64,000 nt of DNA, taken from a virus. Its lineage: Duplodnaviria; Heunggongvirae; Uroviricota; Caudoviricetes. Every line of letters starts with the position of its first letter. The stretch's first letter is position 1. Shown here piece after piece: positions 117 to 14,214 of this stretch. A model generated the notes under the pieces. That model saw only the letters and a list, made by a program, of their open reading frames with translations. It was not told the DNA's origin and searched no databases. A program made the translations under genes and the position numbers. The DNA lies in the IMG/VR virus record IMGVR_UViG_3300037471_001733, positions 22,201 through 86,200 of that record; one strand, written 5' to 3'.

Positions 117-650
117 TCAGCTAATTGATGCGACCGTGCCGTCGCTGTTGTAGGTCCACGTCTGCAGCGTCACGCTGCCGCTCGTGACGGTGGAGACTTT
201 CTTTTTGCCGTTAACGGTGGTGTAGTTGACCGTGTAGGTCACGCCGTTGACGGTGTACGTCGCAACGGATTTGTCCGAGTTGTACGTATAGGTTGCGCCG
301 CTATTGATGATCCCCAGCAGCTTCAAATCGGCGGCATTGGTCGTCACCGAGAACCGCTTGGTGCCAGCTGAGAAATTGACCGGCAGCGTGGCGCTGCTAC
401 CGGACTGAGGCGATGTGCGCTCAAACGTATCGCCGCCGAGATACGTTCCCTCGCCGGTCTCCCACTGTCCGGTCGGCTGGTAGTTGGCATCCACGGCCTC
501 ATAGCGGTACGGGATGCGCGCGTTTACCGCAGCAACCGATTGCAGCGTGCGACGGCCCGGGAAAGGCGTCGTGGGGGACAGCGTGACGTTGCCAGTGCCG
601 GTACTTGTGCTCGTCTGAGCCACCGCGTCATGGAATTCCTTGATCGGCAT
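117..650 (-). CDS. hypothetical virion protein, possible fibre/receptor-binding protein (177 aa)
   Basis: Follows head-closure gene. N-terminal GTGNVTL...WETGEGTY segment recalls conserved fibre N-termini (memory only). C-terminal YTYNSD/WTYNSDG YD-like beta repeats. Confidence 0.45.
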   Translation of the reverse strand: MPIKEFHDAVAQTSTSTGTGNVTLSPTTPFPGRRTLQSVAAVNARIPYRYEAVDANYQPTGQWETGEGTYLGGDTFERTSPQSGSSATLPVNFSAGTKRFSVTTNAADLKLLGIINSGATYTYNSDKSVATYTVNGVTYTVNYTTVNGKKKVSTVTSGSVTLQTWTYNSDGTVASIS

Positions 651-654
651 GTGT

Positions 655-981
655 TCAGCTCTTCAGGTTCGTGTTCTCACAAGCCAGGTCGATGAACGCC
701 CTGTCGGAAGTCGGCATGACGGCGCGGATGTCGTAAGGCCTGCCGTCAATGAGCAATCGCATCCCGGCGTCAATACCGGTGCGATGTCGGATGCGCACGG
801 ACGCGCGCACCGTGGAGAGATCTGCGCCGCCCTTCACAGCCTCAAGGCCGTTGACGTGACGCACGTCAGCCCAAAGCCGCGCGATCTCGGTCCAATCGCC
901 GACGACCTCCTGGCCGAAGTCGTCCTTTCCGCTGGGACGCTGTTGCAACGTCACCCGGAAGTTGAAGGCGCCGGCACCCAT
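655..981 (-). CDS. head-closure / head-tail adaptor protein (SPP1 gp16 / HK97 gp7-like), 108 aa
   Basis: ATG 981 overlaps upstream stop (TAATG). FNFRVTLQQR...DDFGQ...VRIRHRTGI..GMRL.IDGRPYDI pattern typical of phage head-tail joining family; position after gp6-like gene. Confidence 0.75.
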   Translation of the reverse strand: MGAGAFNFRVTLQQRPSGKDDFGQEVVGDWTEIARLWADVRHVNGLEAVKGGADLSTVRASVRIRHRTGIDAGMRLLIDGRPYDIRAVMPTSDRAFIDLACENTNLKS

Positions 982-1550
982 TAGCCGTAGACCTTGAATG
1001 GTTCCAGCAGTCCGCACAGATACGGCAGCGCCGTCATCTGCTTGCCTGCAACAGCCTCACGGTTCGCATAGAAGGCGCCGACGTGCAGCAAGATCCACTG
1101 TCGAATGGACTGCGGCACATCTGCGGGGCTGGACCCGAAACCGGCGACGTAGCGCACGCGCACCGTGTTGATTTCGGCGCGCGTCGTCGGCCATGCCTTC
1201 TCGAAGGCTGGCACTAGGTATGCCGGCGACACGTCGTTGCTGTTGTCTAGAACGTAGTCCGCAGGGTCCAGCGTGGCTAGCACGCCGTCCTCATCCACGT
1301 ACTGCAGCGACTCGACGCCCAGCACCCTGGGCCACTCCAGGCGCAGCGCCTCGCCGAATGCGTCCGTCGTCATCTGCCACGTTGTGCTGATGAGCGTGCG
1401 CTGCATCTGGCCTTCGGCAAGTTGCCGAGCGGCGGTTATGAGGCCGCCTATCAGCAAGTCCTCTTCGTCGTGATCGACTCGAAGGTGCAGCTTTGCCTCT
1501 GCGACGCTCACCGGTTCGGTGGTCGCATCCACGAGCTTTACGGTTGACAT
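981..1550 (-). CDS. gp6-like head-tail connector protein
   Basis: N-terminus VSVAEAKLHLRVDHDEEDLLIGGLITAARQLAEG is the classic Phage_connect_1 signature. Confidence 0.8.
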   Translation of the reverse strand: MSTVKLVDATTEPVSVAEAKLHLRVDHDEEDLLIGGLITAARQLAEGQMQRTLISTTWQMTTDAFGEALRLEWPRVLGVESLQYVDEDGVLATLDPADYVLDNSNDVSPAYLVPAFEKAWPTTRAEINTVRVRYVAGFGSSPADVPQSIRQWILLHVGAFYANREAVAGKQMTALPYLCGLLEPFKVYG

Positions 1551-1553
1551 GCG

Positions 1554-3239
1554 CTACCTTCTTGGACGCTTCGTGTCGTTCAGACGTGGCGCGAAGCCGC
1601 TGCCGCTCGGAGCGCGGCGATATACCTGCGTCGTGTAGACATAAGCCGACAGTGCCGACTGCTGCGTCGCAGCACGCACTACCACTGCACTCAGAGGCGC
1701 CGAGGCAGAGGCTGCATTGACCACGACGGCCGTGACCGGAACGCTGGCGTTCTGAGCAACCTGCACGATCGTGCTCAGGTCTATCGACGTGCTCACGGGG
1801 TGGCTGGCGTCGATGTAGGCGCTCAGGCCAGAAACAGCCTCTGGCTGGCTCAGAACCCCGACACTGAGACCCGCGCTGCGGGTCATGGTGTCAAGCACCG
1901 CAGCACTGACATCAGCAGCCGCCGTGACGCTGACGGCCTCCATGACCATCAGCGACAAGCCGGCCTGCGTCGACTGTGCCGCCGCGATCACGACGTCAAG
2001 CGCCGTCTCCACCGCCTGCTCAACACTCAGTGCCGCACTCAGCGCGGCCTCGACGGCTTGGGTGACCGATACAGGAACTGACAGCTCTGCCTGGAGCAGC
2101 ATCGGCACGTTGATGCAGACATCCAGCGCTGCCGACGTGACCGGCTGATCAAGAACCGCTACCGAGACCTCGGCAAAAGCTTCAACGGGCGTTTCAATCG
2201 CCGCCGACATCTCCACCGTCAACTCGGGGATGGAGTGGATCTGCAGCGACAGATCGGCCGCTAGGGTGTTGCTGAAGAGCACACCGACGCTGAAGGGGAA
2301 ACTTACCTCCGCGTTGGACACCCGGCTGAAAACCGGCATGCCAACCTGCTCGTGCGCGTAAGTCGCCGCCCAGCCGATGTCGGCCGACCAGGCCAGCGGC
2401 AGCCCTTCGTCATAGAACGGGGTGCCAGGCGTCTGCGGCGGCACCGCACCGAGGCCGCCGAGTTCCAGCACTGCGAGACTGCGGAAGCCGGCGTCCTGTC
2501 GGATGTAGACGCTCAGCCCAGTGTTGGCTGAACGCGCCTCCAGCACTGCTGCGGACAACAGCACCTCTGCCGAGCGCGGCTCGTACACGCTGACCGACAG
2601 CGCTGCATCCAGCGAGGCGCTGCGCTGGTTGAACGCCGGCTGCACACCAAGGGGCTGGTATGCATAGATCGCCGACCAGCCGATGTCCGAGGCCCACGCT
2701 TGCGGAAGGCCCTCATCGTTGGCCGGAACCCGCGGCGTCTGCGGCGGCGCTGCTGAGATGCCGCCGGCTTCAAGTAGCGCCAGGCCGCGGAAACCGCTGG
2801 CCGTGGTGACGATCTGCGCGCTCAGTTCGGCGCTGTTCGTGCGCGCGGCCTGCACCGGCGCCGACAGCGGCGCCGACACAGAGCCGGCCTGCTGGACCGC
2901 TACGGACAGCGCCGCATCAGCCTTGGAGACCGGGACGCTGATTGCGCTAAGGCCGCCAGCCTCCAGCAACGCCAGGCCACGGAAACCGCCTTGCCGAATG
3001 TAGACGCTCAGCGGCGCGCTGAGGGTCACGCCCGTGCGCGGCGCGCTGATGCCGCCCAGCTCCAACAGCGCAACACTGCGCCAGCCGCCGTCCAGACGTA
3101 CCAGCGCGCTCAGCGGCGCGCTGGCCGTGGGCTTTGTGCTGACGGCTACCGAGAGCCCAGCCGAGGTGGTGCGCCCGGGGCCGAGCGCACTGACGCCACC
3201 CAGCTCTGGTAGCGCCAGCGAGCGAAAACCGCCCGCCAC
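1554..3239 (-). CDS. 561-aa Ala/Ser/Val/Leu-rich internally repetitive protein of unknown function (virion module)
   Basis: GTG start. Five copies of GGFR(S/G)LALLE(L/A)GG(I/L/V)SA, two ~100-aa tandem units (PPQTP..DEGLP.AW..DIGW), basic C-terminal tail RLNDTKRPRR. Confidence 0.6.
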   Translation of the reverse strand: MAGGFRSLALPELGGVSALGPGRTTSAGLSVAVSTKPTASAPLSALVRLDGGWRSVALLELGGISAPRTGVTLSAPLSVYIRQGGFRGLALLEAGGLSAISVPVSKADAALSVAVQQAGSVSAPLSAPVQAARTNSAELSAQIVTTASGFRGLALLEAGGISAAPPQTPRVPANDEGLPQAWASDIGWSAIYAYQPLGVQPAFNQRSASLDAALSVSVYEPRSAEVLLSAAVLEARSANTGLSVYIRQDAGFRSLAVLELGGLGAVPPQTPGTPFYDEGLPLAWSADIGWAATYAHEQVGMPVFSRVSNAEVSFPFSVGVLFSNTLAADLSLQIHSIPELTVEMSAAIETPVEAFAEVSVAVLDQPVTSAALDVCINVPMLLQAELSVPVSVTQAVEAALSAALSVEQAVETALDVVIAAAQSTQAGLSLMVMEAVSVTAAADVSAAVLDTMTRSAGLSVGVLSQPEAVSGLSAYIDASHPVSTSIDLSTIVQVAQNASVPVTAVVVNAASASAPLSAVVVRAATQQSALSAYVYTTQVYRRAPSGSGFAPRLNDTKRPRR

Positions 3240-3250
3240 AGTGGGCTACC

Positions 3251-3727
3251 TCAGGCGGCGCCGACGATGGGCACGGCCGCCGCGTCGGTGGTCAACGTCT
3301 GGGTGTACTGAGTCGTGGAGCCATCGGTCTTCTTGACCGTCAGCGTCGCGCCGGAAATGCTGAAGTCAGCGCGCAGGCCGGTGGTCTCAAGCCACTCGGT
3401 GCCTCCCACCAAGCTCTCGTACACGTTCGACGGAACGACCATGTAGTCATGCCACACGGGCAGCGCACCGGTTTCGTTCACTGCCACGCGCAAGCGGCCG
3501 AGAGTACCGGTGTCGGTGGCATTGATGGCCACGCTGTAGTAGCCGTTCTCCATGTGCGTTGCGGTAGTCGTTTCCGACTTTTGCGCGAAGGCTGCGGCGT
3601 TCTTGGACAGGCGGATCTTTGCTTGAGTCAGCGACAGAGCAGTCTCGGCCGTGAAACCATCGGTGCTGTCAACAAACGGACCGAGCACCAGCGTGGCGGC
3701 CGTGGATTGCTTGAGAAGAGTGCTCAT
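3251..3727 (-). CDS. hypothetical protein (158 aa), virion module
   Basis: ORF with ATGA overlap to upstream gene (3724/3727); protein-like composition; no motif recognised. Confidence 0.6.
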   Translation of the reverse strand: MSTLLKQSTAATLVLGPFVDSTDGFTAETALSLTQAKIRLSKNAAAFAQKSETTTATHMENGYYSVAINATDTGTLGRLRVAVNETGALPVWHDYMVVPSNVYESLVGGTEWLETTGLRADFSISGATLTVKKTDGSTTQYTQTLTTDAAAVPIVGAA

Positions 3728-4455
3728 TGCGCGGACCTCAGTCGGAATTGATGCATGGAACGAGGGGCCTGTGACTGGCTGCTGCCGGAGCCGAGAACTT
3801 CGATGGCGGCCAGCGTCCAGGTCTGTGAAGCGGGGGCCGTCATGCCAATCGCGTAGGTGCCAGTGGCGCCTGAATCGGCGTGGTAGCCGTGGTACACGCA
3901 GTACTCGTTGGCCAGTGTGTCGTTGTTCTGCGCAACGGCAGCAGTGCGCTGCGTGAACGTCCCGGCATTGCTGCGGTATGTCTGCGATGTCAACGCAGTG
4001 GCCGCACGGTCGCCGATGAACATCACCGCCGCCGAGTTGGCCCCGGTGGTCGTCAAGTTGACGGACGGAGCCGTGCCGGTACCGGAGCCAGAGACAACGG
4101 CACCGACGCCGCCAGCACTGCGGAACTGGTACGCCGTCGCGCCGAACACGATGCCATCGTCTCCTTCAGTGCCAGCGCCGCGCGAGACCGAGATCGTCAC
4201 GGACGCTGCCGTGGACGCAGTGGCGGTCCAGATGTAGAGCTCAGCGTGCGACGAGTCGACCGCGACGTCCGCGCGTTGCGTGTACGTGTTCGTCGCGCTG
4301 TCGCTAACGACTAGGCCGTCAATGTGCGATTTCAGGGTGCCAATGACGACGATCAGGTCGCCAACCTGCGTCGTGAGCGACATGGTCAGCGCGCTGCCGA
4401 AGGCCTGGGCCCATGTGCTCGTGTTTACGCTGGTGACAAAGGTTGGTGCTGCCAT
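3724..4455 (-). CDS. hypothetical protein (243 aa), Thr/Ser/Ala/Gly-rich beta-type, virion module
   Basis: ORF packed 3 nt after the beta-helix gene; no motif recognised. Confidence 0.6.
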   Translation of the reverse strand: MAAPTFVTSVNTSTWAQAFGSALTMSLTTQVGDLIVVIGTLKSHIDGLVVSDSATNTYTQRADVAVDSSHAELYIWTATASTAASVTISVSRGAGTEGDDGIVFGATAYQFRSAGGVGAVVSGSGTGTAPSVNLTTTGANSAAVMFIGDRAATALTSQTYRSNAGTFTQRTAAVAQNNDTLANEYCVYHGYHADSGATGTYAIGMTAPASQTWTLAAIEVLGSGSSQSQAPRSMHQFRLRSAQ

Positions 4456-4457
4456 GG

Positions 4458-5933
4458 TCAGGTTCTCTGGTAAGCGCCGCGGGTCCAGTTGCCAGCCACG
4501 CGCGGGACGCCATCCATGTCGATGTCGTACGGCGCCGCCAAGTCGATGCCGGCCGCAAAGCTGGCGGTGCTGGCGATGTGGTAATCGGCGCCGGCGTAGT
4601 TCTTGAAGATGGACGTCGGCACGCTGAAAATTGCGTTCGTTCCGGAGCCGCTGTAACTCGTGTTCGAAAACGCGTTATGCGACACCACTGAACCGCTTCC
4701 GGCCGTGATGGAGCCGCCGCTACCGATCCAGAGGTTGTTGCGCACGGTGTTGCCGCTGCCGTCCGGGAACTGGATGCCGGCGTTTCCTTCGAGGCCGCGG
4801 ATGAACGTGTTGTTGACGATCACGCAGCCAGTGCCGTTGCCGCCGTTGGTCGGGTTGCCCAGGAAGCCGATGGCGGCATCGCCGACATAGAACGTGTCGA
4901 AGACATTGCCGTACACGAAGATCGCGGGCTTGCGGCTCTGCGAGCGGTTGACGGCCACGGCGATGAGCGCGGTGCCGCCGAGCCCAGACTGGTAGCTGTT
5001 GCGCCAGACGTTGTGCCGAATGACGGTGTCGAACACCGAGAAATACACGTTGACGATTTCGCCGTGGTGCGTGCCGTTGCTCCACGCGTTCTCGCAGGCG
5101 TTGTATTCGATCACGCAGCCATCGGTCTGACGGATGAAGAAGACGTTGCTGCTGCGGTTTATGTAGTTGCGACTGAAGACGATTCCCGTACCCTGAATGT
5201 CGTTCGAGTCTGTATCGAACGTGTACGGCCGGTAGTTGCTGTCGGTCTGCGGGCCAATGCCGTAGCAGTAGCAGCGCGTGATGGTGACGTTGTTGACGGC
5301 TGTGCCGCCGAAGCGGATGTTCTGGCCGCGGGCGTTGCCGCCGGGGCCGGTGGTCGTTCCGTTGCCGCCGGACGTCGAGTGGTCGATGCGGATGCCGTAG
5401 CTGTCGCCGTCGAACCAGTTCAACTCGTTGCGCGTGCCGCCGTCAATGATCCAGTTGCTCGTGTTGATGGTGATCGGTTCGAGCTGGCTGGTGAAGTACG
5501 CCTGGCCGGTGCCGAAGGAATCTGACCAGCCCTGGTTGGTGCCGTGATCCGAGATAGTGGCCTTCTTGATCGTGATGTAGAGCGATCCGTTCGTGGCCGT
5601 GCTCAGCGTGCGCGTGGTGTAGGTACCAGACTTCAGGTAGTACGTGAATCCGCGCTGAAAATTGACTGTGCTCCAGGGCGCCACGTTGTTCCAGTCATCC
5701 CCGGATTGGTCACCAGAGGGCAGCGGACCAACGTACTTGGCATTCGTCGGCGCCTGCGCCTGCTGATCGATCTGCATTGACAGGCCGGCAGATAGAAGCC
5801 GCTGGTACCGCAATGCGAGGGAAAGCGGGCCCGACGCAATGGCGGACGCCGGCTGCGCAAACGACTCCGATGGTCGCTTGCGCTGCGGTCGCCCCATGCC
5901 GGCGCGCACTGCAATGGGCCTGCTGTACGCCAT
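4458..5933 (-). CDS. right-handed parallel beta-helix repeat protein (pectate-lyase/tailspike-like fold), 491 aa
   Basis: Repeated PbH1-like turns: NNVTITRCYCYGIG, GIVFSRNYINRSSNVFFIR, CVIEYNACEN, TVIRHNVWRNS, CVIVNNTFIRG, NTVRNNLWIGSGG, SVVSHNAFSN. Confidence 0.65.
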   Translation of the reverse strand: MAYSRPIAVRAGMGRPQRKRPSESFAQPASAIASGPLSLALRYQRLLSAGLSMQIDQQAQAPTNAKYVGPLPSGDQSGDDWNNVAPWSTVNFQRGFTYYLKSGTYTTRTLSTATNGSLYITIKKATISDHGTNQGWSDSFGTGQAYFTSQLEPITINTSNWIIDGGTRNELNWFDGDSYGIRIDHSTSGGNGTTTGPGGNARGQNIRFGGTAVNNVTITRCYCYGIGPQTDSNYRPYTFDTDSNDIQGTGIVFSRNYINRSSNVFFIRQTDGCVIEYNACENAWSNGTHHGEIVNVYFSVFDTVIRHNVWRNSYQSGLGGTALIAVAVNRSQSRKPAIFVYGNVFDTFYVGDAAIGFLGNPTNGGNGTGCVIVNNTFIRGLEGNAGIQFPDGSGNTVRNNLWIGSGGSITAGSGSVVSHNAFSNTSYSGSGTNAIFSVPTSIFKNYAGADYHIASTASFAAGIDLAAPYDIDMDGVPRVAGNWTRGAYQRT

Positions 5934-5936
5934 GAC

Positions 5937-6380
5937 TCAGCCGTCGATCTCTTCGATCGCCAGGTTGATCGTCACGTTGCCCGTGCCGCTGGCACTGCGG
6001 ATGCTGACCTGGCCGCTGACAGGCACCGGGAACTCCCAGCCGGGCGCGGCGACGTACTTGTCGATGCCGCCGTTGGCGTTGGGGCCCATGCGCCACAGGA
6101 TTGCGCCGTCCAGCGTCGGGGCTGCGGCCCAGGTCGTATAGACGCTGAAGGACGCCGCTGCGCTGGACGGGTTCAGCTTGCTGGGCGTGATCGCGCCGCC
6201 GGGCGTCGTGCCTCCGGAACTGCGCTGCACCAGGATTTCGTTGACGGCCGATGCCGTGTCCATCCCTTTGATGTCGATGACGGTGATGCGCAACGGCTTG
6301 GTGGAACTGGCGACGATGGTGAGCAGGTCGGCCGTCGTGCTGAGCGTGGTGCGGGCACGCGAAACTGAGAAGAGAGGCAT
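5937..6380 (-). CDS. hypothetical protein (147 aa), virion module
   Basis: ORF, tight spacing to neighbours; no motif recognised. Confidence 0.55.
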   Translation of the reverse strand: MPLFSVSRARTTLSTTADLLTIVASSTKPLRITVIDIKGMDTASAVNEILVQRSSGGTTPGGAITPSKLNPSSAAASFSVYTTWAAAPTLDGAILWRMGPNANGGIDKYVAAPGWEFPVPVSGQVSIRSASGTGNVTINLAIEEIDG

Positions 6381-6398
6381 TGCAGGTTCTCCAGAAGA

Positions 6399-6650
6399 TC
6401 AGGGCTGCAGGTCCTGGCGAGACACCACGACCGCCCCGCTTGCGCTATCCACGTAGACACGCACGCCGGCCAGTTCGACCACGACCCACTCGACGTTCGA
6501 CTGAGCCTCCGTCCCGACATCCCTGATGCCGCGGCGGCGGAAGATCGCGCCTTCGGTGTCATGGAGCGCGACACGGACGGAGCCGTTGGACGCTGCGCGC
6601 ATGCCGCTCTGTGCGTCTGCGTCGATTTCGAAGGGGATGGGCTGGGTCAT
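6399..6650 (-). CDS. hypothetical protein (83 aa), virion module
   Basis: ORF starting 14 nt downstream of terminator 6664-6690; no motif recognised. Confidence 0.5.
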   Translation of the reverse strand: MTQPIPFEIDADAQSGMRAASNGSVRVALHDTEGAIFRRRGIRDVGTEAQSNVEWVVVELAGVRVYVDSASGAVVVSRQDLQP

Positions 6651-6663
6651 GAGGTGTTGGCGC

Positions 6664-6690
6664 GAAAAAGCCGCCTCGTGGGCGGCTTGT
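6664..6690 (-). terminator. rho-independent terminator after the 162-aa gene
   Basis: AAGCCGCC(6668-6675)/GGCGGCTT(6681-6688) stem, 5-nt loop, T-run on minus strand (complement of aaaaa 6665-6669). Confidence 0.7.
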
Positions 6691-6727
6691 TAGGTGATCC
6701 GTATCTGAGAGCGCTATTAGTTGCGCC

Positions 6728-7216
6728 TCAGACTTCATCCCAGGAAAAGTAGACGCTGTCACCTTGCGCGAGGCCGCCCGTCGCAGTCGACTGCACTTCG
6801 CACATCAGGACCAAGTGGTCGCCCTTTTCGCCAGTGCTCGTGTACGGGCCGGCGCCAAGACTCAGCGCGGAGCCGGACGTGTAGCCAAAGAAGTTGTTGT
6901 AGCCGGTGGTAGCCGTGGCCTCGGCCGGCGTGGCGTAGGTGGTCACGGCCTTTGCCCACAGCAGAACACCGGTGCCCAGGCTGTTGGTGCCGTCGGAGTA
7001 CGCCTTGATGCCGGTGATCTGCGAGTACGTGCCGCCGGTCACCTCCAGGCGCAACCACTTCTCATACGAGAAATCGCTGCCGCTGGTCGGCTTGACCATC
7101 GGGTTGTTCAGATCGACGGCGCTGTTGTCCGCATTTTTGAACCGGATGCCACTGGCCGCGTCCGTCGCGGTTGCACCGGCCCCATTTTTTTGCACGATGC
7201 GAGTCGTTGCGGCCAT
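6728..7216 (-). CDS. hypothetical protein (162 aa), candidate abundant capsid-accessory protein
   Basis: Strong RBS (GAGGAGGccacATG), own terminators on both sides, directly downstream of capsid region; no motif recognised. Confidence 0.55.
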   Translation of the reverse strand: MAATTRIVQKNGAGATATDAASGIRFKNADNSAVDLNNPMVKPTSGSDFSYEKWLRLEVTGGTYSQITGIKAYSDGTNSLGTGVLLWAKAVTTYATPAEATATTGYNNFFGYTSGSALSLGAGPYTSTGEKGDHLVLMCEVQSTATGGLAQGDSVYFSWDEV

Positions 7217-7227
7217 GTGGCCTCCTC

Positions 7228-7256
7228 AAAAAGAAAAGCCGCCCGAAGGCGGCTTG
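7228..7256 (-). terminator. rho-independent terminator after the 145-aa gene
   Basis: AGCCGCC(7237-7243)/GGCGGCT(7248-7254) stem, cgaa loop, T-rich tail on minus strand. Confidence 0.7.
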
Positions 7257-7276
7257 ATGGTTGCAAGTGAAGCGGC

Positions 7277-7714
7277 TTAGGCCGGCGTGCTAGCCGGGTG
7301 GCCCTTGATCACGTTCACGGCGATGGGCGTGCCAGCGCCGTGGGTGCCGCTGAAATCAGCGGTGACCTTCAGGTAACGGCGTTCGCCGATGTAGGCCACC
7401 TTGGCGACGGTGGCCGCAGCGTGAGCAGCGGTCAGCGAGCGCACGATGCCGCCGGTGCCCACGCTGGAGTCAGCGTTGGTCAGAAGGCGCACGTCATCAC
7501 TGGTCACGGCGGTGTACGTGGTGTCGTCCTTCGAGTGAGTCAGCAGGAACTCGATCTTGTTGGACGTGGTGAACGTGATGCCGCCGACGCCGACACCGAT
7601 GGAGACAACGGCGCTGTCGAAGCCCTTGAGATCAATGGCAGAGGAGGTCGTGTCGCTGGACAGCGTGGCGTTGAGCGCCGGCACGATGGAGATGTTGTTA
7701 GCGAGGTCTCGCAT
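7277..7714 (-). CDS. hypothetical protein (145 aa), candidate capsid decoration/cement protein
   Basis: First gene after major capsid gene, flanked by terminators; beta-rich sequence (AIDLKGFDSAVVSIGVGVGGITF...); function inferred from position only. Confidence 0.5.
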   Translation of the reverse strand: MRDLANNISIVPALNATLSSDTTSSAIDLKGFDSAVVSIGVGVGGITFTTSNKIEFLLTHSKDDTTYTAVTSDDVRLLTNADSSVGTGGIVRSLTAAHAAATVAKVAYIGERRYLKVTADFSGTHGAGTPIAVNVIKGHPASTPA

Positions 7715-7736
7715 GACAATTCCTTTGGAAGCCTGG

Positions 7737-7770
7737 GTGAAGAAAGGCCTGTCAGTGCAGGCCTTTTTCA
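7737..7770 (-). terminator. bidirectional stem-loop terminator after major capsid gene
   Basis: AAAGGCCTG(7743-7751)/CAGGCCTTT(7758-7766), 6-nt loop, T-rich runs on both strands. Confidence 0.7.
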
Positions 7771-7785
7771 GTGGTCAGTCGTGGA

Positions 7786-9033
7786 TCAGGACGCGGAAAT
7801 TTTGAGCTTCTTCATCGCGTCGCTCTGACGCACGCCGCCACCGACGCGCTTGCGGGCGCGGTACACCACGAGGCCGTTGTCGGCTTCGGTGATGTAATCG
7901 GCCTGGAAGCCCAGGCCGATGCGATCAACGATGGTGTATGCGCGCTTGAAGTCACCCCACAGCACCGGGTAGGCGCTGGCCGCGATGTCCGGAAGGTCAG
8001 GGAACTCAACGTACGGAGCGCCCAAGATCGTGTTCGCCACGGCGTTGGCGAAGCCAGGGGTCCAGAGGTAGTTGCCTTGGCCGTCCTTAAGCTTGCGGAT
8101 GTCACGGATGGTCTTGCGGTTCAGCGCGAACATCGCGTTGGCAGCGTAGGCCGTCTTCAGCTCGAACTGCAGGTTGATCAGGCCGTCAGACGTGATCTTG
8201 GTAGCGTCGCCGCTGACCACCTCACCGATGCCAGAGGCCACCAGCAGGCCCTCCATTTGCTGAGCGGCGGAGCCAACGCCGTTGATGGACTCGGCGCCTT
8301 CCTTCACGGCCATCTGCTCGGCGACTTCCATGCGCAGCTCGCCAAGGAGGTCGTAGTCCGAATCCTCCAACATCTGTTGCGACACGCGGTTGCGCGCGAA
8401 CATTTCCGGGGCCGTGATCTCGCCCATCCCATACTTGGGATCGGTCGTGTCCGTACGGGTCTCGATTTCACCGACGCGCTTGGCGCTGCCGGTGCCGACA
8501 CGCTTGGGCCACTTGTACGAGTGGCCGCCGATAATGCGCACGGTGGCGAGTCGACGGATGGGCGACTGCTCCACGATGTCCTTGAGGATCGCGCGCTCCA
8601 GATCCGGCGGGGCAAGCAGGTAGCCGGCGGACTGGTCGTCGCCCTTCACCAGAGACGCCATGTGCGTCTTGATGACCTGCATGTCCTCCAGCGAGCGGGC
8701 CTCATGGCGGGTGCGCATCACGCGGTTGAACGCGGCTTGCAGCTTGGCGTTCTCGGCGGCGGAGTCGGCAGCGGTGGAGCCGGGGCGCTGCAGCATGGTC
8801 TGGACTTGATCCAGTTGCTCCTGCATGGCCTTCGCAGCATTCTGCTGGGCCAGCAGTTGCTGGTTCATGTTCTCGTAGCGATCCAGCGTATCGCTGATCG
8901 CCTCGACCTTGGCAGTCAGGTCGCCAACGGCCTTGCCGTCAGCCTTGGCCGAGATGAGCTTGTCGTTGTGCTCACGCAGTTGCGTGACGGCTTCCATTAC
9001 TTCCTGGATGCCATCATTGGTGATGTTGGGCAT
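7786..9033 (-). CDS. major capsid protein, HK97 family (with N-terminal delta/scaffold-like coiled coil)
   Basis: 415 aa. N-terminal coiled coil then GGYLLAPPDLERAILKDIVEQSPIRRLATV... typical HK97-fold MCP; position after ClpP-like protease. Confidence 0.9.
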   Translation of the reverse strand: MPNITNDGIQEVMEAVTQLREHNDKLISAKADGKAVGDLTAKVEAISDTLDRYENMNQQLLAQQNAAKAMQEQLDQVQTMLQRPGSTAADSAAENAKLQAAFNRVMRTRHEARSLEDMQVIKTHMASLVKGDDQSAGYLLAPPDLERAILKDIVEQSPIRRLATVRIIGGHSYKWPKRVGTGSAKRVGEIETRTDTTDPKYGMGEITAPEMFARNRVSQQMLEDSDYDLLGELRMEVAEQMAVKEGAESINGVGSAAQQMEGLLVASGIGEVVSGDATKITSDGLINLQFELKTAYAANAMFALNRKTIRDIRKLKDGQGNYLWTPGFANAVANTILGAPYVEFPDLPDIAASAYPVLWGDFKRAYTIVDRIGLGFQADYITEADNGLVVYRARKRVGGGVRQSDAMKKLKISAS

Positions 9034-9050
9034 TTGGATTCCTACAGACG

Positions 9051-9078
9051 TAAAAAAGCCCGCTCGGGGCGGGCTTCG
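9051..9078 (-). terminator. rho-independent terminator/attenuator between protease and capsid genes
   Basis: AAGCCCGC(9056-9063)/GCGGGCTT(9069-9076) stem, T6 run on minus strand. Confidence 0.65.
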
Positions 9079-9099
9079 TTGGGCTTGGGGACGGTTTGG

Positions 9100-10182
9100 C
9101 TACTTGCTGATGAGGCTCAGGATGTGGGCCTTCAGGTTCGCCAGCTCGGTTGCGCTTTGCTCGTCACGAGCAGGCGCGGCCGGAGCCGCAGGTGCGGCAG
9201 CGGCGGGTTCCCGAGACTCGTCGCGAGGCCCGGTGTGCAGCGCGGCCTTGGCCAGTGCGATGACGCACTTGGCCTCGGCCGCAGAAAGGCCAACCGCATC
9301 ACGCAGTTGGCGCTCAAGGATGCGGACCTCAGGCGTGCCGTCGTCGTCGCCGGCAGGCACGAGGTCTTGCGGGGTGTTCTTGAAGAAGGGCAGCATGGCC
9401 GAGCGCGCATGCGTCAGCGCGGCCTTCTTCTCCTTCTTCTTGGCCGGCACCATCGTGTCGGCGAATCCTTTGTCCACGGCGTCCTGGCCGCGGAACCACG
9501 TTTCGGCGTCAACCCACGAGGCGATTTCGGCGCGGTCGCCACCGGTGCGCGCGACGTAGATGTCGATGAGGCCGGCTTCCAGCGTGTCCAGCACGTCGGC
9601 TTCCTTGCGCAGGGCCTTGGCGTTGCCGGCGAGAATCGTCCACGGCGCGTGGATCATGAAGTTCGCGCCTTCAGCGATGCGGATCTCGTCGCCGGCCATC
9701 GCAATTACGGAAGCGATGCTGGCGGCAATGCCATCGACGTGCACGATGATCTTGGCCTTGTGCGTGGCCAGCGCGTTGTAGATGCTGACGCCGTCGAACA
9801 CGGACCCGCCTGGCGAGTTGATGTGTACGTGCAGCTCATCAGCATCCAGCGCGGCGAGTTCGCGCACTGTGTCCTCGGCATTAACGCCGCCGTCCCAGTA
9901 GCCGCCGATGTCGCCGTATACAAACAGCTTCGGCGCTTCGCCTTCGTCGGCGGCCAAGCGCAGGTGGCCAGGGCCCAGCGCGCGCGGCGCCAGATTCATT
10001 GCCCGCTCGGGCAGGCCGGCGAGATTGATGACGGGTTTGGTCATTGCGGCCGTCCCTTCCTCATTGCTTTCTTGTTCCTCGCCCAACTCGGAGAGGACTG
10101 CGGCCAGCGACACCTGAGCGTCGCGGATGCGAGATTCGTTGCGGGCGCTCAGCACGCGCCCGGCGTTCAGACGTTGGCCCAT
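9100..10182 (-). CDS. prohead maturation protease, ClpP/S14-like, with C-terminal scaffold-like extension
   Basis: VYGDIGGYWDGGVNAEDT...HINSPGGSVFDGVSIYNAL...VDGIAASIASVIAMAGD ClpP-fold signature; between portal and MCP. Confidence 0.85.
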   Translation of the reverse strand: MGQRLNAGRVLSARNESRIRDAQVSLAAVLSELGEEQESNEEGTAAMTKPVINLAGLPERAMNLAPRALGPGHLRLAADEGEAPKLFVYGDIGGYWDGGVNAEDTVRELAALDADELHVHINSPGGSVFDGVSIYNALATHKAKIIVHVDGIAASIASVIAMAGDEIRIAEGANFMIHAPWTILAGNAKALRKEADVLDTLEAGLIDIYVARTGGDRAEIASWVDAETWFRGQDAVDKGFADTMVPAKKKEKKAALTHARSAMLPFFKNTPQDLVPAGDDDGTPEVRILERQLRDAVGLSAAEAKCVIALAKAALHTGPRDESREPAAAAPAAPAAPARDEQSATELANLKAHILSLISK

Positions 10183-10185
10183 GGG

Positions 10186-11481
10186 CTACCCTTGGTTGCG
10201 CGCTGAAAGCGCTTGACTGGATGCCGCCAAGTCGTTGTTGTCTTGCTGTGCCGGGGCCGCGCCAGCGGGGTTGCTTGGCATGCCTAATTCCGGATCAGAG
10301 GCGTCGCCCATGTTCACGGGCGCGCGGTAGATTTCGCCGCCCTCGTACGGGTTCTGCTCCTCGTAGGCGCGGATCTCGTTCGCGTTGAGCGCGCCCATCT
10401 GCCAGAGGCGGAAGTAGTACTCGGCGCGGTCACGCGCGGCGCCGCGCATCAAGGCATTGGCGTTGAACTTCGCGTAGATACCGTCGTCCAGGTCACGCTC
10501 GCTAAGCAGGTTGCAGTCGATGCTCTGCTCGATGCGTTCGTACCAAGGCGCCAGGCAGTGCACCACGTGCGCCAGGAACATCTGCTCCGCGCTGGCGTAA
10601 GTGGCCGTCTTGTCGCTGTAGCCGACCATCAGTGGCGCGCACCTAAAAATTCTGCACACCTCTTCGATCTGGTGACGTCTCGTTTCGAGATGCTGGCTAT
10701 CAACGCCCGTCATCGACGTCGGCACAAACTTGGCGCCGCGGTCAAGAATCATCGGGCGGAATCTCGCTTCGCCTGTCATGTTCTTCTCGACCCAGTTGCG
10801 CAGAGCAAGGAACTGGTCCGGAAGCAGCTTGTCGTCCACGCTGTAGATGCCAGTGGACTGCGCGCCATTGGCATGCATCAGCGCATGCGCCTCTTCGGTC
10901 GCCATCGCAAGGCCTATGGCCTCGCGAGCCAACTGCAACGGCTTTAGGCCGTCATAGCCGTTCCAACTCAGCCCTTTGACGTGCCAGATCGCCTCAGCCG
11001 GGAAGTCCTGCGACTGCCCAGTGATCTCGCTGCTTACGCGGTACACCGGCCGGCGGAACTGGTCCACATCCACGCACACCTCGTGCGGGAGAAACGGGAT
11101 CAACTCGCGGATCTTGCCGTTGACGACGTTCTTGAACGCCACGAAACGACCGGCCAAGCACACATGCGCGGCCAGCATCTCGCGGAACTCGAAGGACGTC
11201 TGCCAAGGGTTCGGCCGGCGGTACAGCACGCGATACAGCGGGTGGTCCTTCGCCGGATCGCTGCCGCCGTCGTCACGCTCCTTGTAGAGCTTCAAGGGCA
11301 CCTGCGCGATGCCCTCGGCAATCACGCGCACGCACGCCAGGACCGTCGTCACCTGCAGCGCGGTTTCCACCGTGACGTTCTGACCCGAACGCGACGCAGG
11401 AAACCAGCCGCTCCAGAAAGGCTCAGTGAACGCCTGCGCCCGGCGCTGCCGCGGCGCCATCATCTTCGACAGGAAACTCAC
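10186..11481 (-). CDS. portal protein, HK97 family
   Basis: 431 aa; ETALQVTTVLACVRVIAEGIAQVPLKLY and overall pattern of HK97-type portals; between TerL and protease. Confidence 0.9.
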   Translation of the reverse strand: MSFLSKMMAPRQRRAQAFTEPFWSGWFPASRSGQNVTVETALQVTTVLACVRVIAEGIAQVPLKLYKERDDGGSDPAKDHPLYRVLYRRPNPWQTSFEFREMLAAHVCLAGRFVAFKNVVNGKIRELIPFLPHEVCVDVDQFRRPVYRVSSEITGQSQDFPAEAIWHVKGLSWNGYDGLKPLQLAREAIGLAMATEEAHALMHANGAQSTGIYSVDDKLLPDQFLALRNWVEKNMTGEARFRPMILDRGAKFVPTSMTGVDSQHLETRRHQIEEVCRIFRCAPLMVGYSDKTATYASAEQMFLAHVVHCLAPWYERIEQSIDCNLLSERDLDDGIYAKFNANALMRGAARDRAEYYFRLWQMGALNANEIRAYEEQNPYEGGEIYRAPVNMGDASDPELGMPSNPAGAAPAQQDNNDLAASSQALSARNQG

Positions 11482-11756
11482 TCGGCAGCCTTCCCGTCAC
11501 CGGCACGCGCGCGGATGCCCATCAGGCCCAGGCCCAGCGCCAGCAAGCCGCCGACGATGAAGCCAGCCGGCAGGGAGTACAGGCCGGTGCCATAGGCAAC
11601 AGCCCCGGCGCCGCCCAGCGCCAGCATGTCCGGCATCAGAAAGGCCAACAGTTCGCCGCCGGCCGCAATCAGGCCCAGCATGGCGCGGCCAAGGGTCAAC
11701 ATTCGGCGGGCCAGAAATGTCCTGGCACCGGCGATCTTCGTTCGCAGGTTTTTCAC
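11478..11756 (-). CDS. small membrane protein (92 aa)
   Basis: ATGA overlaps at both ends; Gly/Ala/Leu-rich with at least 2 predicted TM helices. Confidence 0.5.
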   Translation of the reverse strand: MKNLRTKIAGARTFLARRMLTLGRAMLGLIAAGGELLAFLMPDMLALGGAGAVAYGTGLYSLPAGFIVGGLLALGLGLMGIRARAGDGKAAE

Positions 11757-13513
11757 GGCGTCAGGACTTCCCAGAATGACTTTCCAGTGGACTCGGTGGT
11801 TCTGGACATCAAGCCCACGGCCATCACAGCCGCCACGATGAGGTCGATGCGGCCCGTGGCCTTTTCCTTGCTGAGCTTGCGGTTCTCGGCGTCATCCATC
11901 ACCGTCACCGCGTTGCTCGCACACCAGTTGAAAACTGGGTGGTCGTTGTGCGCCAACTCGTTGTTGAGCAGCATTCGCTCGAACTCTTCAACGGCTGGCG
12001 AAGCCTCTTTGTAACCTTGCCCGAACGCGACCATGGGCGGTAGGCTGATGCCTTCGTCGTCGGCAAGCGCCAGCAAGTCTTCGATGCGCCAGCGGTCGTA
12101 TGCGACGCCCTGGATCTCGAATGCCTCGGACAGCGCGGACAGCCGCTGCAGCACGTTGCGCTTGCTGATCGCGCGCCCCGGCGTGGTGTCCAAGTGCCCG
12201 GCAGCTTTCCACTGCACGTAGGGCACTCGATCGGTTTCGGCCTTCTTCTGCAGCCCCTCATCAGGCAGCCAGGCGAACGGCACTAGGTGCCACGGCTCGC
12301 CTTCCTCTTGCGGCTCAACCAGCAGCACCAGCCCCGTAAGGTCGGTGGTGGACGACAGGTCCAGCCCGGCCCAGGCTCGCCGGCCGCGCAGGTCTTGCCA
12401 GTTGAAGGTGCGAATCGCACTCTTCCAAACGTCGGCCGACAGCCACGGCGAATCGGCATCCGTCCACTGGCAGAAATTCAGCCGGCGGACGATCGCCTCC
12501 TTAGACGGCATGCCGCGCGCTTCGGTCACCTGCTCGCGCAGGTACTTCATGCCCGGCAGATCGGCGTCCTGCAGCGAAGGGTTGGCCTTCACCCAGCACG
12601 ACTCGTCCGAGAAAGGATCCTCGCCTTCATCTAGGGCGCACACGAAACTGAAGAACGCATCGTCCTCCAGCGTCCCCGCTGCGACCTTTGCGCCGTACTC
12701 GTGGTACGCCCAGCACGGCCCCCGTTTGTCGGAGCCGCTGTTGGTGATCATGAAGATCAGCGCCTGCCGCCGGCTCTTGGTGCCGGCGCGCATCATCTCC
12801 ACGACCGTGTTGGTCTTGTGCTCGTGCAGCTCGTCGATGAGCGCAATGTGCGGCCGCGGGCCGGACTGCCCATCGTCCGAGCTGATCGGGCGGAAGAAGC
12901 TGCCGGCCTGCAGGTAGGCCAGGTTCCACACCCGCTCGCCCGTGCCGCTCTTGGTCAGCCGCTTAGCGAGTTCCGGCGACTGGTCCACCATGGCCACCGC
13001 GTCGCGGAAGAGGATCATGGCCTGATCCTTCTTCGTCGCCGCAGCGTAGACCTCTGCGCGCGCCTCGCTGTCGGCGGTCAGGCCAAGAAGCCCAATGCCC
13101 GCCGAAAGGGGCGACTTCCCGGAGCCCTTGGCCGTCTCGACGTAGGCAACACGGAACCGCCGCCAGCCGTCAGAACCCTTCCAGCCGAACAGACTGCCGA
13201 TGACGAATTTCTGCCACGGCAGAAGCTCGAAGGGCTTTCCCTCAAAGTCGCCGCCGTTGAGCTTCAGGACGTTGCGGTAGTACCGCAGCGCCTTCAGGGC
13301 GGTCTCCAGGTCCCAATTCAGGCCGCGTGCCGGGCCTTTCTCCAGGTCGCGCAGGTGGCGCGCGCATGCCGCGCGCACATGCGGGCCGGCGATGCGTTTG
13401 CCGTCAACGACGGATTGGGCGTACTCGGTGACCGGATCGTCACCAGTCGGGACGTCAGCCGAAGAATTCCTGTAAGTGGTCTTCCTTTTGGTCGTCGTCG
13501 GCGTTTTGGACAT
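11753..13513 (-). CDS. terminase large subunit (Terminase_1 type)
   Basis: 586 aa; Walker-A-like VETAKGSGKS, LIDELHEH Walker-B-like, C-terminal nuclease region; follows TerS. Confidence 0.9.
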   Translation of the reverse strand: MSKTPTTTKRKTTYRNSSADVPTGDDPVTEYAQSVVDGKRIAGPHVRAACARHLRDLEKGPARGLNWDLETALKALRYYRNVLKLNGGDFEGKPFELLPWQKFVIGSLFGWKGSDGWRRFRVAYVETAKGSGKSPLSAGIGLLGLTADSEARAEVYAAATKKDQAMILFRDAVAMVDQSPELAKRLTKSGTGERVWNLAYLQAGSFFRPISSDDGQSGPRPHIALIDELHEHKTNTVVEMMRAGTKSRRQALIFMITNSGSDKRGPCWAYHEYGAKVAAGTLEDDAFFSFVCALDEGEDPFSDESCWVKANPSLQDADLPGMKYLREQVTEARGMPSKEAIVRRLNFCQWTDADSPWLSADVWKSAIRTFNWQDLRGRRAWAGLDLSSTTDLTGLVLLVEPQEEGEPWHLVPFAWLPDEGLQKKAETDRVPYVQWKAAGHLDTTPGRAISKRNVLQRLSALSEAFEIQGVAYDRWRIEDLLALADDEGISLPPMVAFGQGYKEASPAVEEFERMLLNNELAHNDHPVFNWCASNAVTVMDDAENRKLSKEKATGRIDLIVAAVMAVGLMSRTTESTGKSFWEVLTP

Positions 13514-13928
13514 GAACCTTGGACCTCGCGGCCGGCGTCAGCCCGAACTCGACCAGCCACGCCTTGAAGCGCCGGTCGGCATCGGCCAGCATGGCCACCG
13601 CCGGGTTCGCTTTGATGCTGCGGTCGCCCTGCGTGTTCGTTGTTTCGTAGGTAGGGCCGTCCTGGTTCACCAGTTCCTGATACCGCAGGATCTCGGCGTA
13701 CACGGCGCAGCCTCTCTCAAGGGCGTAGGCATCGGCCTCGGTTAGCACGCCCATCCGATCCAGCAGCACAGACATGCGGCCCCAGGCAACCTTGGCCTCG
13801 TCGGACAAGTGGCTGGGGCAACTAGGTATCTCGCGGCGTGGTTTGGGCTCGCTCTTGTTGAGCGCGCGCCTTCCCGGGTTGCCTGTAACTATTTTTAAGT
13901 GGCTCGGTTTTGGCCTGCGCCCCGCCAT
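13455..13928 (-). CDS. terminase small subunit, P27 family
   Basis: MAGRRPKPSHLKIVTGNPGRRALNKSEP...CPSHLSDEAKVAW matches P27-family TerS pattern. ATG 13928 chosen (AAGGA RBS, 4 nt after HNH stop); alternative ATG 13955. Confidence 0.8.
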   Translation of the reverse strand: MAGRRPKPSHLKIVTGNPGRRALNKSEPKPRREIPSCPSHLSDEAKVAWGRMSVLLDRMGVLTEADAYALERGCAVYAEILRYQELVNQDGPTYETTNTQGDRSIKANPAVAMLADADRRFKAWLVEFGLTPAARSKVHVQNADDDQKEDHLQEFFG

Positions 13929-13932
13929 ATCT

Positions 13933-14214
13933 CTATTCCTTGACTGGCCAGCCATCCACCCCGATCACCGGCCGAACTCGATGACCTAGATCTCGCGCCG
14001 TTTTGTCACGGTGACAGGGGGTACATAGCCCCTGAGCCTGGCCCGGGTCTTCGTGGAAGTCCTTGCCGCCGTTGACTAGCGCGACTTTGTGGTCCAACTG
14101 AGTTGCGGCAGCAAGTCGGCCATGGCGTGAGCACTCAGCACAAAGCGGGTTCAGCCGCAAGTAGTAGTCGCGGAACCGCTGCAGCGGGCGGCCACGCAAG
14201 CGATCAGTGGCCAT
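13933..14214 (-). CDS. HNH endonuclease (terminase-associated, HK97 gp74-like position)
   Basis: 93 aa; CAECSRHGR...LDHKVALVNGG...CTPCHRDKT HNH motif; immediately upstream of TerS. Confidence 0.85.
   Translation of the reverse strand: MATDRLRGRPLQRFRDYYLRLNPLCAECSRHGRLAAATQLDHKVALVNGGKDFHEDPGQAQGLCTPCHRDKTARDLGHRVRPVIGVDGWPVKE

Follow-up and report, generated by a model that had tools for sequence, protein, structure and literature searches.

What eight genes are doing between the major capsid gene and the head-tail adaptor gene of a tailed virus is the question raised by a 64,000-nucleotide (nt) stretch of Caudoviricetes DNA (IMG/VR record IMGVR_UViG_3300037471_001733, positions 22,201 to 86,200), referred to below as the window. 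A first-pass annotation had listed eight same-strand open reading frames (ORFs) of 145, 162, 83, 147, 491, 243, 158 and 561 amino acids (aa) at this place, and had read them as one capsid-decoration or head-fibre system or as a tail apparatus relocated into the head module. All eight ORFs are present, and they make up a composite of a probable cement-protein gene, the two small genes b162 and b83, a mobile cassette of putative adhesin and depolymerase genes, and an orphan gene for a repeat protein. The products from b162 to b561 are taken here, with moderate confidence, to form accessory fibres that bind and degrade polysaccharide and are probably anchored at the neck of the virion. Gene names such as b145 give the length of the ORF product in aa, and coordinates are positions in the window:

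7786-9033, minus strand: major capsid protein, 415 aa, HK97-family by the source annotation; upstream boundary of the region
7277-7714, minus strand: b145, post-capsid gene, phrog_5707
6728-7216, minus strand: b162, first gene of the true insert, with terminators on both sides
6399-6650, minus strand: b83, small protein with no family match
5937-6380, minus strand: b147, opening frame protein of the cassette
4458-5933, minus strand: b491, putative polysaccharide depolymerase of the beta-helix family
3724-4455, minus strand: b243, probable beta-sandwich with a minor-tail-protein fold
3251-3727, minus strand: b158, closing frame protein (N-terminal domain, 3392-3727)
1554-3239, minus strand: b561, 14-residue-repeat protein
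981-1550, minus strand: gp6-like head-tail adaptor Ad1 (PF05135, E 1.8e-7; phrog_442, E 5.8e-27); downstream boundary

The block from capsid gene to adaptor gene

The distance between the capsid and adaptor genes of the window is a real length outlier. Among 31 related loci in which both genes were detectable, the adaptor gene starts 430-2871 nt behind the end of the capsid gene in 30 (median 1069 nt); the distance is 7154 nt in the 31st, L091, which is the closest relative in the set, and 6235 nt in the window (related loci are cited by such L numbers where they need to be told apart). The premise that the adaptor gene normally follows the capsid gene directly does not hold for this lineage, in which at least one small gene always lies between the two, usually a homologue of b145. 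The identity of the downstream boundary is not in doubt, as the gp6-like Ad1 product matches both PF05135 and phrog_442 and its gene adjoins a head completion gene of family PF05521.

The gene immediately behind that for the capsid protein is a homologue of b145 in 57 viral contigs, and in five of these the adaptor gene begins 66-100 nt further on. The protein belongs over its full length to phrog_5707 (E 1e-13, residues 1-144), a family of unknown function that also takes in the 140-aa post-capsid protein of the related locus L151 (E 2e-31). When a profile of 46 b145 homologues was compared with the whole Protein Data Bank (PDB), the only matches were a cementing protein (3j4u_H, E 0.017) and a capsid decoration protein (8cjz_B, E 0.028), both of 130-140 aa; the E-values are marginal and the coverage partial, yet the two matches agree with each other. 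Structure 3j4u is that of Bordetella phage BPP-1. With a constant place behind the capsid gene and PDB matches confined to cement and decoration proteins, b145 is probably the ordinary capsid cement/decoration protein of the lineage. It resembles 3j4u_H and 8cjz_B in its size of about 140 aa and in being encoded right behind an HK97-type capsid gene, a comparison that holds for b145 alone and not for the rest of the block. By tblastn, b145 matched three uncultured records only among 50,697 deposited phage records, and the major capsid protein matched capsid proteins in 503 phage records. With b145 a standard gene of the lineage, the true insert starts at b162 and extends to b561, about 5.7 kb.

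Third-position GC content is 0.78-0.88 in all eight ORFs, matching the terminase, portal and capsid genes, which indicates that all are real coding sequence in the codon usage of the phage itself. Family libraries have little to say about their products, with no Pfam match at E ≤ 0.1, no NCBIfam match, and a PHROG match for b145 only. BLASTP among the eight proteins found no mutual similarity and thus no paralogy within the block. Against the 50,697 phage records, megablast with the first 14.3 kb of the window and tblastn with b491, b147 and b162 returned nothing.

By strand, codon usage and tight packing, b162-b561 is part of the late structural operon, and the morphogenesis operon as a whole lies on the minus strand. 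From b147 through b561 to the adaptor gene, neighbouring genes are separated or overlap by 11 nt or less, and by 2-4 nt at every junction except one; the gap between b561 and the adaptor gene is 3 nt. No sigma-70-like promoter turned up for these tightly packed genes. The suggestion that the first two block genes, b145 and b162, are flanked by terminators is borne out by three stable hairpins with U-rich tails:

7745-7764, minus strand: hairpin and UUCUUC after the capsid stop codon (-16.3 kcal/mol, z -4.4, 0 of 200 shuffles as good)
7236-7255, minus strand: intrinsic-terminator-like hairpin and U-run after b145, called by a terminator scan (-15.2 kcal/mol, z -4.3, 0 of 200 shuffles)
6668-6688, minus strand: hairpin and UUUUU after b162, read by eye (-14.2 kcal/mol, z -2.7, 3 of 200 shuffles)

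The hairpin behind the capsid gene was missed by the consensus terminator scan and was recognised by reading the sequence.

An exchangeable cassette and its cargo

Judged from gene order in related contigs, the core of the insert is a horizontally mobile cassette, b147-b491-b243-b158, whose outer members b147 and b158 form a conserved frame around cargo that can be exchanged, here b491 and b243. Homologues of b147 (34-93% identity) occur in 18 viral contigs, and each is followed by variable cargo and then by a gene resembling either b158 or the gene for a 168-aa protein of L091. The latter (L091 13836-14342) occupies the slot of b158, as do its homologues in six further b147-bearing contigs (L296-L299, L302 and L304), a pattern that suggests two alternative closing proteins for one cassette. 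These homologues are 57-65% identical over their full length in five contigs, and 64% identical over the first 55 residues in L304. The opening protein b147 has no sequence match in Pfam, PHROGs or the PDB, and its profile found nothing meaningful in the PDB.

The contexts of the cassette are varied. In L152, L153 and L154, a b147-like gene, 2.4-3 kb of cargo and a b158-like gene follow one another; the L152 cassette is located after a lambda-type portal gene and a gene for a 985-aa protein, and its cargo encodes a 232-aa protein and, in the slot of b491, a pectate-lyase-like beta-helix protein. L091, with a capsid protein 68% identical to that of the window, has a block of equal size made mostly of different genes, among which a b491-like gene (38% identity) and b243 (81%) are kept. 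The L091 gene after b145, in the position of b162, matches PF23140 Gp80 (GP4 fibre I; E 1.4e-22) and also phrog_20658 (head decoration). In the P22-like L144, the gene order is portal, a phrog_3758 protein, b243-like, b158-like (67%), proteins of 436, 382 and 303 aa, and coat, with the 303-aa protein probably being the scaffold, judged by position. In L146, a b158-like gene (68%) is followed directly by a distant relative of b561, then by a phrog_684 virion protein and by a 662-aa protein that looks like a beta-helix tailspike when its sequence is read.

Ahead of the cassette, b162 is 75-94% identical in L147, L151 and L293, whose capsid genes differ, and b83 is 46-77% identical in the same three. 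Neither protein matches Pfam, PHROGs or NCBIfam, and b162 also has no match in the phage records. The sole PDB match of the b162 profile, a chitooligosaccharide oxidase at E 0.018, was dismissed as chance.

The first-pass annotation had also read a beta-helix protein into the block, and this holds for b491 by way of its homologues. Fifty-eight were found, and eight of 46 aligned members match PF13229 Beta_helix (best E 3e-9); as a homologue of these members, b491 is placed in the right-handed beta-helix family as a putative polysaccharide depolymerase. Its translation may start at the second ATG, 12 codons downstream of the first. Homologues with 41-44% identity sit in bacterial polysaccharide-biosynthesis loci, where their neighbours include glycosyltransferases, asparagine synthases, acyltransferases and a Bac_transf gene. 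All bacterial members of the family begin with a signal peptide followed by AN.YVRAGA. In the phage members, the signal peptide is gone and a phage-specific N-terminus of about 65 residues (RPIAVRAGMG...SGPLSLAL...SAGLSMQI) stands in its place, resembling the motif and repeats of b561. Residues 1-70 of b491 correspond to positions 5724-5933 of the window, and the L091 counterpart lies at about 11500-11800 of that contig. The N-terminus of the L091 depolymerase likewise resembles the repeats of the protein that L091 itself has at the position of b561, and the depolymerase N-termini and b561-type repeats may, as these parallels suggest, be co-evolving docking segments. Since a b561-like N-terminus has replaced the signal peptide, b491 probably assembles with b561 into a fibre.

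Phage depolymerases and the glycan-trimming enzymes of their hosts are related, and Pantoea stewartii WceF is an example of a bacterial tailspike-like glycanase encoded in an exopolysaccharide locus. The b491 family is similar to tailspike depolymerases and to such bacterial glycanases in its predicted beta-helix, and its bacterial members are likewise secreted and encoded within polysaccharide loci. Unlike known tailspikes, b491 would be anchored at its N-terminus by a repeat motif shared with b561 and not by a known head-binding domain.

The second cargo protein, b243, is all beta in its AlphaFold2 model (pLDDT 82.9, pTM 0.82). Foldseek comparison of the model with BFVD returned at least 50 entries with probability 1.0 and E-values of 4e-7 to 1e-4, among them actinophage minor tail proteins and a CenC-like carbohydrate-binding protein. 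Alignment with the BFVD models of actinobacteriophage minor tail proteins extends over the full length of b243, with query-normalised TM-scores of 0.57-0.75. The model had no match among solved structures, and the b243 profile found nothing meaningful in the PDB. On its predicted fold, b243 is a probable beta-sandwich of the minor-tail-protein type that would bind carbohydrate or a receptor.

The closing protein, b158, has an N-terminal domain of about 110 aa (residues 1 to ~112) that turned up in 19 viral contigs and at 42 genome loci. Copies span metagenome-assembled genomes (MAGs) of more than 10 phyla, including Chloroflexota, Gemmatimonadota, Planctomycetota, Nitrospiraceae, Actinomycetota and Candidate Phyla Radiation (CPR) groups, together with bins labelled Altiarchaeales and Methanosarcinales, whose archaeal labels rest on metagenomic binning. 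The protein is 56-72% identical in P22-like, SU10-adaptor-type and other contigs. Pairs among the 53 unique copies of the domain have a median identity of 54%, and conservation reaches 80% or more at 34 of 112 positions. The domain always forms the extreme N-terminus of proteins of 133-650 aa, which is the usual layout of fibre anchors and argues for a role as a fibre anchor module. It is a simple sequence marker for such cassettes, and for new depolymerases, in metagenomes.

The large repeat protein proposed for the block is b561, in which 14-residue A.LSV.V repeats are combined with five GFRSLALLE(L/A)GG motifs, a pair of ~45-aa modules and a basic C-terminus. Its relatives are so few (two homologues from an indexed search, six hits from an exhaustive one) that it counts as a near-orphan. 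Distant relatives share its motifs, some adding an N-terminal beta-sandwich or LamG-like domain, and one of them sits directly behind a b158 homologue. The L091 protein at the position of b561 has in common with it a repeated LALLGG motif and a C-terminal Y.RAP.GSGF. An AlphaFold2 model from a seven-sequence alignment was unusable (pLDDT 30). A match of residues 46-121 to the designed beta-propeller Pizza6 (E 1e-7) was dismissed as an effect of repeats and composition, and a propeller of this kind was rejected because the spacing of the b561 motifs (48, 33, 64 and 102 residues) does not fit regular blades.

Linkage to the connector and tail

Related genomes with different heads bear on where these products may act, and three comparisons with the window (percent protein identity) are informative:

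L147/L150: b162-b561 70-95%; adaptor 67%; terminase large subunit 88%; portal 30%
L151: b162, b83, b147 and b158 72-88%; adaptor 72%; terminase large subunit 23%; portal 49%; capsid 28%
L293: b162, b83 and b147 with the same pattern as L151; terminase large subunit 64%; portal 29%; capsid 23%

The capsid protein of L147/L150 was undetectable by tblastn, its place being taken by a different member of phrog_10 followed by a phrog_28483 protein; downstream, L147/L150 also retains a second non-canonical block and the gp10/gp17-like genes. L151, which is the same as L166, is a prophage on contig NZ_BCTC01000054.1 of Azohydromonas lata NBRC 102462. Its block has a b491 relative (27% identity over a partial match), a b243 detected at its C-terminal end only, and a b561 of 31-42% identity. 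The L293 contig does not cover the genes downstream of the block. The head-shell module of portal, protease, capsid and post-capsid gene (window 7277-11481) is exchanged between the window and L147/L150, L151/L166 and L293; the large terminase is retained at 64-88% identity (except in L151), as is everything from b162 onward.

The insert from b162 on is thus 70-95% identical, alongside the adaptor, neck and tail genes where a contig extends to them, in genomes in which the portal is 29-49% identical and the capsid protein 28% or less, or undetectable, which links b162-b561 to the connector and tail and not to the head shell; its products are probably not bound to the capsid. Proteins that bind one particular capsid would hardly be expected to outlast an exchange of heads of this kind, an argument against capsid decoration for every product except b145. 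The idea of the whole block as one decoration system therefore fails, and survives for b145 alone, as a probable cement/decoration protein by position and PDB matches. The companion idea, that the products resemble an apparatus for host-surface adhesion and depolymerisation more than head-assembly proteins, is supported.

The neighbours of b158-type genes point to the head-tail junction. Upstream, the commonest Pfam family is Laminin_G_3 (nine members, lectin-like), with Phage_capsid_4 in three cases; downstream, it is SU10_adaptor (four members). In L191, a capsid gene (Phage_capsid_4) is followed by three small genes, a b158-type gene and an SU10-type adaptor gene. The same order is found in L172, whose adaptor matches Pfam SU10_adaptor and whose capsid gene was assigned by BLASTP clustering with the Phage_capsid_4-matching capsid proteins of L191 and L183. 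Thus the arrangement with a b158-type gene between those for capsid and adaptor is seen again in a lineage that is not related to that of the window. A position beside the adaptor gene is common for b158-type genes, but not universal.

By gene content, with a Phage_tail_3 tube protein and, in a relative, a 1383-aa tape measure protein, the window phage is classed as a siphophage. Behind the tape measure gene of the Azohydromonas lata prophage come ORFs for a 302-aa protein, a 616-aa tail-spike protein of phrog_4636, and proteins of 160 and 94 aa, and then the endolysin gene. This tail-tip module (L209 15687-20657) is very small, and its 302-aa protein belongs to phrog_6278. As the relative has a tail-tip spike of its own behind the tape measure gene, the block would be additional to the tail tip and not displaced from it. 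The notion of a relocated tail apparatus thus fits in part: fibre-like parts, and relatives in the tail-fibre positions of podophage-like contigs, agree with it, but the spike kept at the tip of a close relative does not. The adaptor is 181-200 aa long (about 190) in 33 of 39 relatives, with or without a block, so its length is unrelated to the presence of the block, and the idea of an adaptor extended for docking was rejected.

A two-layered arrangement would account for these observations. In the first layer, b145 would be an ordinary capsid cement/decoration protein; in the second, b162-b561 would be an accessory adhesion module expressed with the structural genes and incorporated into the virion. 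The N-terminal domain of b158, of about 110 aa, would act as an anchoring module, as in other phage fibres, with b561 as a long beta-rich repeat protein encoded behind the cassette and b491 co-assembling with it into a fibre through the b561-like N-terminal segment. By analogy with the fibre collars of phages DEV and GP4 or the neck passage structure of lactococcal phages, the assembly would sit at the head-tail junction around the adaptor. From there, the fibres would bind and, if b491 is an active enzyme, cut host exopolysaccharide, giving a reversible first contact and clearing a path for the tail-tip spike. Gene content, family membership, synteny, mobility and the loss of the signal peptide are established by the sequence comparisons, and from these the entry of the products into the virion, their place at the neck, the enzyme activity and the pairing of b491 with b561 are inferred.

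Other explanations were weighed against such neck fibres, and it is unlikely that the entire block decorates the capsid or forms head fibres in the manner of phi29 gp8.5, T4 Hoc or the head spikes of the Rhodobacter gene transfer agent. The persistence of b162-b561 where portal, protease, capsid and post-capsid genes have been exchanged is the chief obstacle, and no block protein falls into a known decoration or head-fibre family in Pfam or PHROGs, while the fold of b243 and the contexts of b158 indicate fibre- or tail-type proteins. The attraction of this explanation lies in the location of the block directly behind the capsid gene, in the similarity of b145 to cement proteins, in the terminators after the capsid gene, b145 and b162, which suggest abundant products, in the head-decoration match of the L091 gene after b145, and in the L152 and L144 cassettes that lie among head genes. 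Somewhat less probable again is an adsorption apparatus of the tail tip, such as distal side fibres or tailspikes, encoded out of place. The minor-tail fold of b243, the terminal tail-fibre position of b158-type genes in L146 and in Microcystis phage Mvi-Yong1342-1, and the few genes behind the tape measure gene of the close relative would all fit, but the tip of that relative already holds a phrog_4636 spike, two or more unrelated lineages have their b158-type gene in the interval from capsid to adaptor, and the contigs with b158 in a tail-fibre position look like podophages, whose fibres attach at the adaptor anyway.

The block might also be cargo with no part in the virion, that is, morons encoding free enzymes or lysogenic conversion functions, such as an enzyme that modifies exopolysaccharide and is set free at lysis or made by the prophage. 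The nearest annotated surroundings of b491 homologues are the exopolysaccharide loci of bacteria, and terminator-flanked single genes such as b162 resemble morons. This is nevertheless the least probable of the explanations considered, as the bacterial signal peptide has given way to a motif shared with b561, the genes from b147 to the adaptor are packed into the late operon with no sigma-70-like promoter found, codon usage is that of the structural genes, b243 matches virion proteins, and the cassette always occurs in the structural regions of phage contigs.

Several results also weigh against accessory neck fibres. The b491 sequence alone matches no Pfam family at E ≤ 0.1, its profile has no sequence match in the PDB, and no catalytic residues were identified in it. 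The b158 domain has no Pfam, PHROG or PDB sequence match, and its profile showed no similarity by hhalign to the N-terminal barrel of DEV gp53. Adaptor binding does not readily account for a median identity of 54% in phages whose adaptors are unrelated. No characterised homologue of b147, b158, b162 or b561 came to light, and a b158-type gene is present in one of the 50,697 deposited phage records, that of a Microcystis phage. Genes of b158 type also end late operons, in tail-fibre position (L146 and L208), and one lies between the portal and scaffold genes in L144. The tail tip of the relative is minimal, so that some block products could assemble there instead.

A bolder form of the neck-fibre interpretation, speculative and rather doubtful, would make the b158 N-terminal domain a so far undescribed, near-universal plug by which exchangeable fibres, lectins and depolymerases are fixed to the head-tail junctions of unrelated tailed viruses. 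The window would then hold a podophage-style, adaptor-anchored apparatus on a siphophage neck, with b561 as a new kind of 14-residue-repeat shaft that docks the depolymerase. The range of such a plug, no less conjectural, might run from HK97-type siphophages through P22-like and SU10-adaptor-type phages to viruses binned with CPR bacteria and archaea.

Surrounding genes, known systems and implications

The block lies within an otherwise recognisable morphogenesis operon, whose remaining features in the window are as follows:

13933-14214, minus strand: HNH endonuclease
13455-13955, minus strand: small terminase
11753-13513, minus strand: large terminase
11478-11756, minus strand: hydrophobic 92-aa ORF between the large terminase and portal genes
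10186-11481, minus strand: portal
9100-10182, minus strand: ClpP-type protease/scaffold
655-1017, minus strand: head closure protein Hc1 (PF05521, E 2.6e-23; phrog_25)
117-650, minus strand: c177, first gene of another non-canonical block, which continues beyond the window start

The true start of Hc1 is probably at 981, giving 108 aa, the length called on L003. The product of the 92-aa ORF (11478-11756) is strongly hydrophobic and rich in Gly and Ala, and Pseudomonas phage VW-6S has a small hypothetical gene at the equivalent position. Immediately upstream of the HNH and small terminase genes is a gene for a 298-aa Cys-rich protein (14553-15449, minus strand), with repeated C..C motifs and an HNH-like C-terminus, as read from its translation.

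The second non-canonical block, made up of c177, c122, c182 and c814, separates the head-closure gene from the gp10-like/gp17-like tail-completion genes (window 117-650, minus strand; L003 2491-5856; L147 13100-17021; L151 14222-18126). Residues 32-108 of c177 resemble the N-terminus of the 436-aa protein of L144, and the N-terminus of c182 (MSGGIFRL) resembles the start of b561 (MAGGFRSL). The 814-aa protein c814 has SWM_repeat and Big_13 Ig-like repeats, and its N-terminal part looks, on reading, like a glycoside hydrolase.

The b162-b561 block resembles neck passage structures, podophage adaptor collars and depolymerase tailspikes, and by the features compared it is a member of none of them. 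The neck passage structures of lactococcal 936 and P335 phages carry carbohydrate-binding or beta-helix domains and are a proposed collar at the tail-capsid connector, and the collar of TP901-1 has been proposed to attach to the portal (PMC6669499). Like them, the block would give a siphophage an accessory fibre set with beta-helix and carbohydrate-binding modules for extra high-avidity polysaccharide contacts, a function proposed here. The lactococcal beta-helix domains, pectin/alginate-lyase-like, are distal. Unlike the block, the lactococcal structure is a single protein of 500-900 aa with a BppU-like N-terminal beta-sandwich and a trimeric coiled coil; no block protein matches BppU_N, the functions are spread over several genes, and no homology between the two systems was detected. 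The hosts also differ, with lactococcal hosts being Gram-positive and the named host among the block relatives being Azohydromonas lata.

In DEV, 15 copies of the N-terminal beta-barrel of gp53 encircle the dodecameric adaptor, and in GP4 a 93-aa Ig-like tail-fibre adaptor carries fibres I-III (PMC11445570). As in these collars, in which a beta domain of about 90 aa, placed at the very N-terminus of a fibre or made as a small protein of its own, rings the adaptor and bears fibres with enzymes, the b158 domain is N-terminal and encoded near adaptor genes, and L091 encodes a homologue of GP4 fibre I within its block. The window phage differs from the podophages DEV and GP4 in being a siphophage by gene content; its b158 shows no sequence similarity to DEV gp53, and its b162 does not match PF23140 Gp80. 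The view that the block is made of standard components applies to b145, a conserved gene of the lineage, and not to b162-b561, which are no standard tail or connector components with known homologues.

Accessory fibres that bind or cut capsules and exopolysaccharides help decide which hosts a phage can reach, and they are the components borrowed most often for host-range engineering and enzyme discovery. The locus exemplifies a modular way of carrying them, in which a conserved frame holds exchangeable cargo and the unit as a whole passes between phages of very different kinds. Hardly any of its components are represented in current family libraries, and cultured phages almost never have them. 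For experimental work, a prophage is directly at hand in Azohydromonas lata NBRC 102462, a strain that grows in culture. Follow-up is most worthwhile for the repeat architecture of b561 and for the N-terminal domain of b158. If the neck location is true, adaptor-anchored collars, so far described in podophages, would extend to siphophages of Gram-negative hosts.

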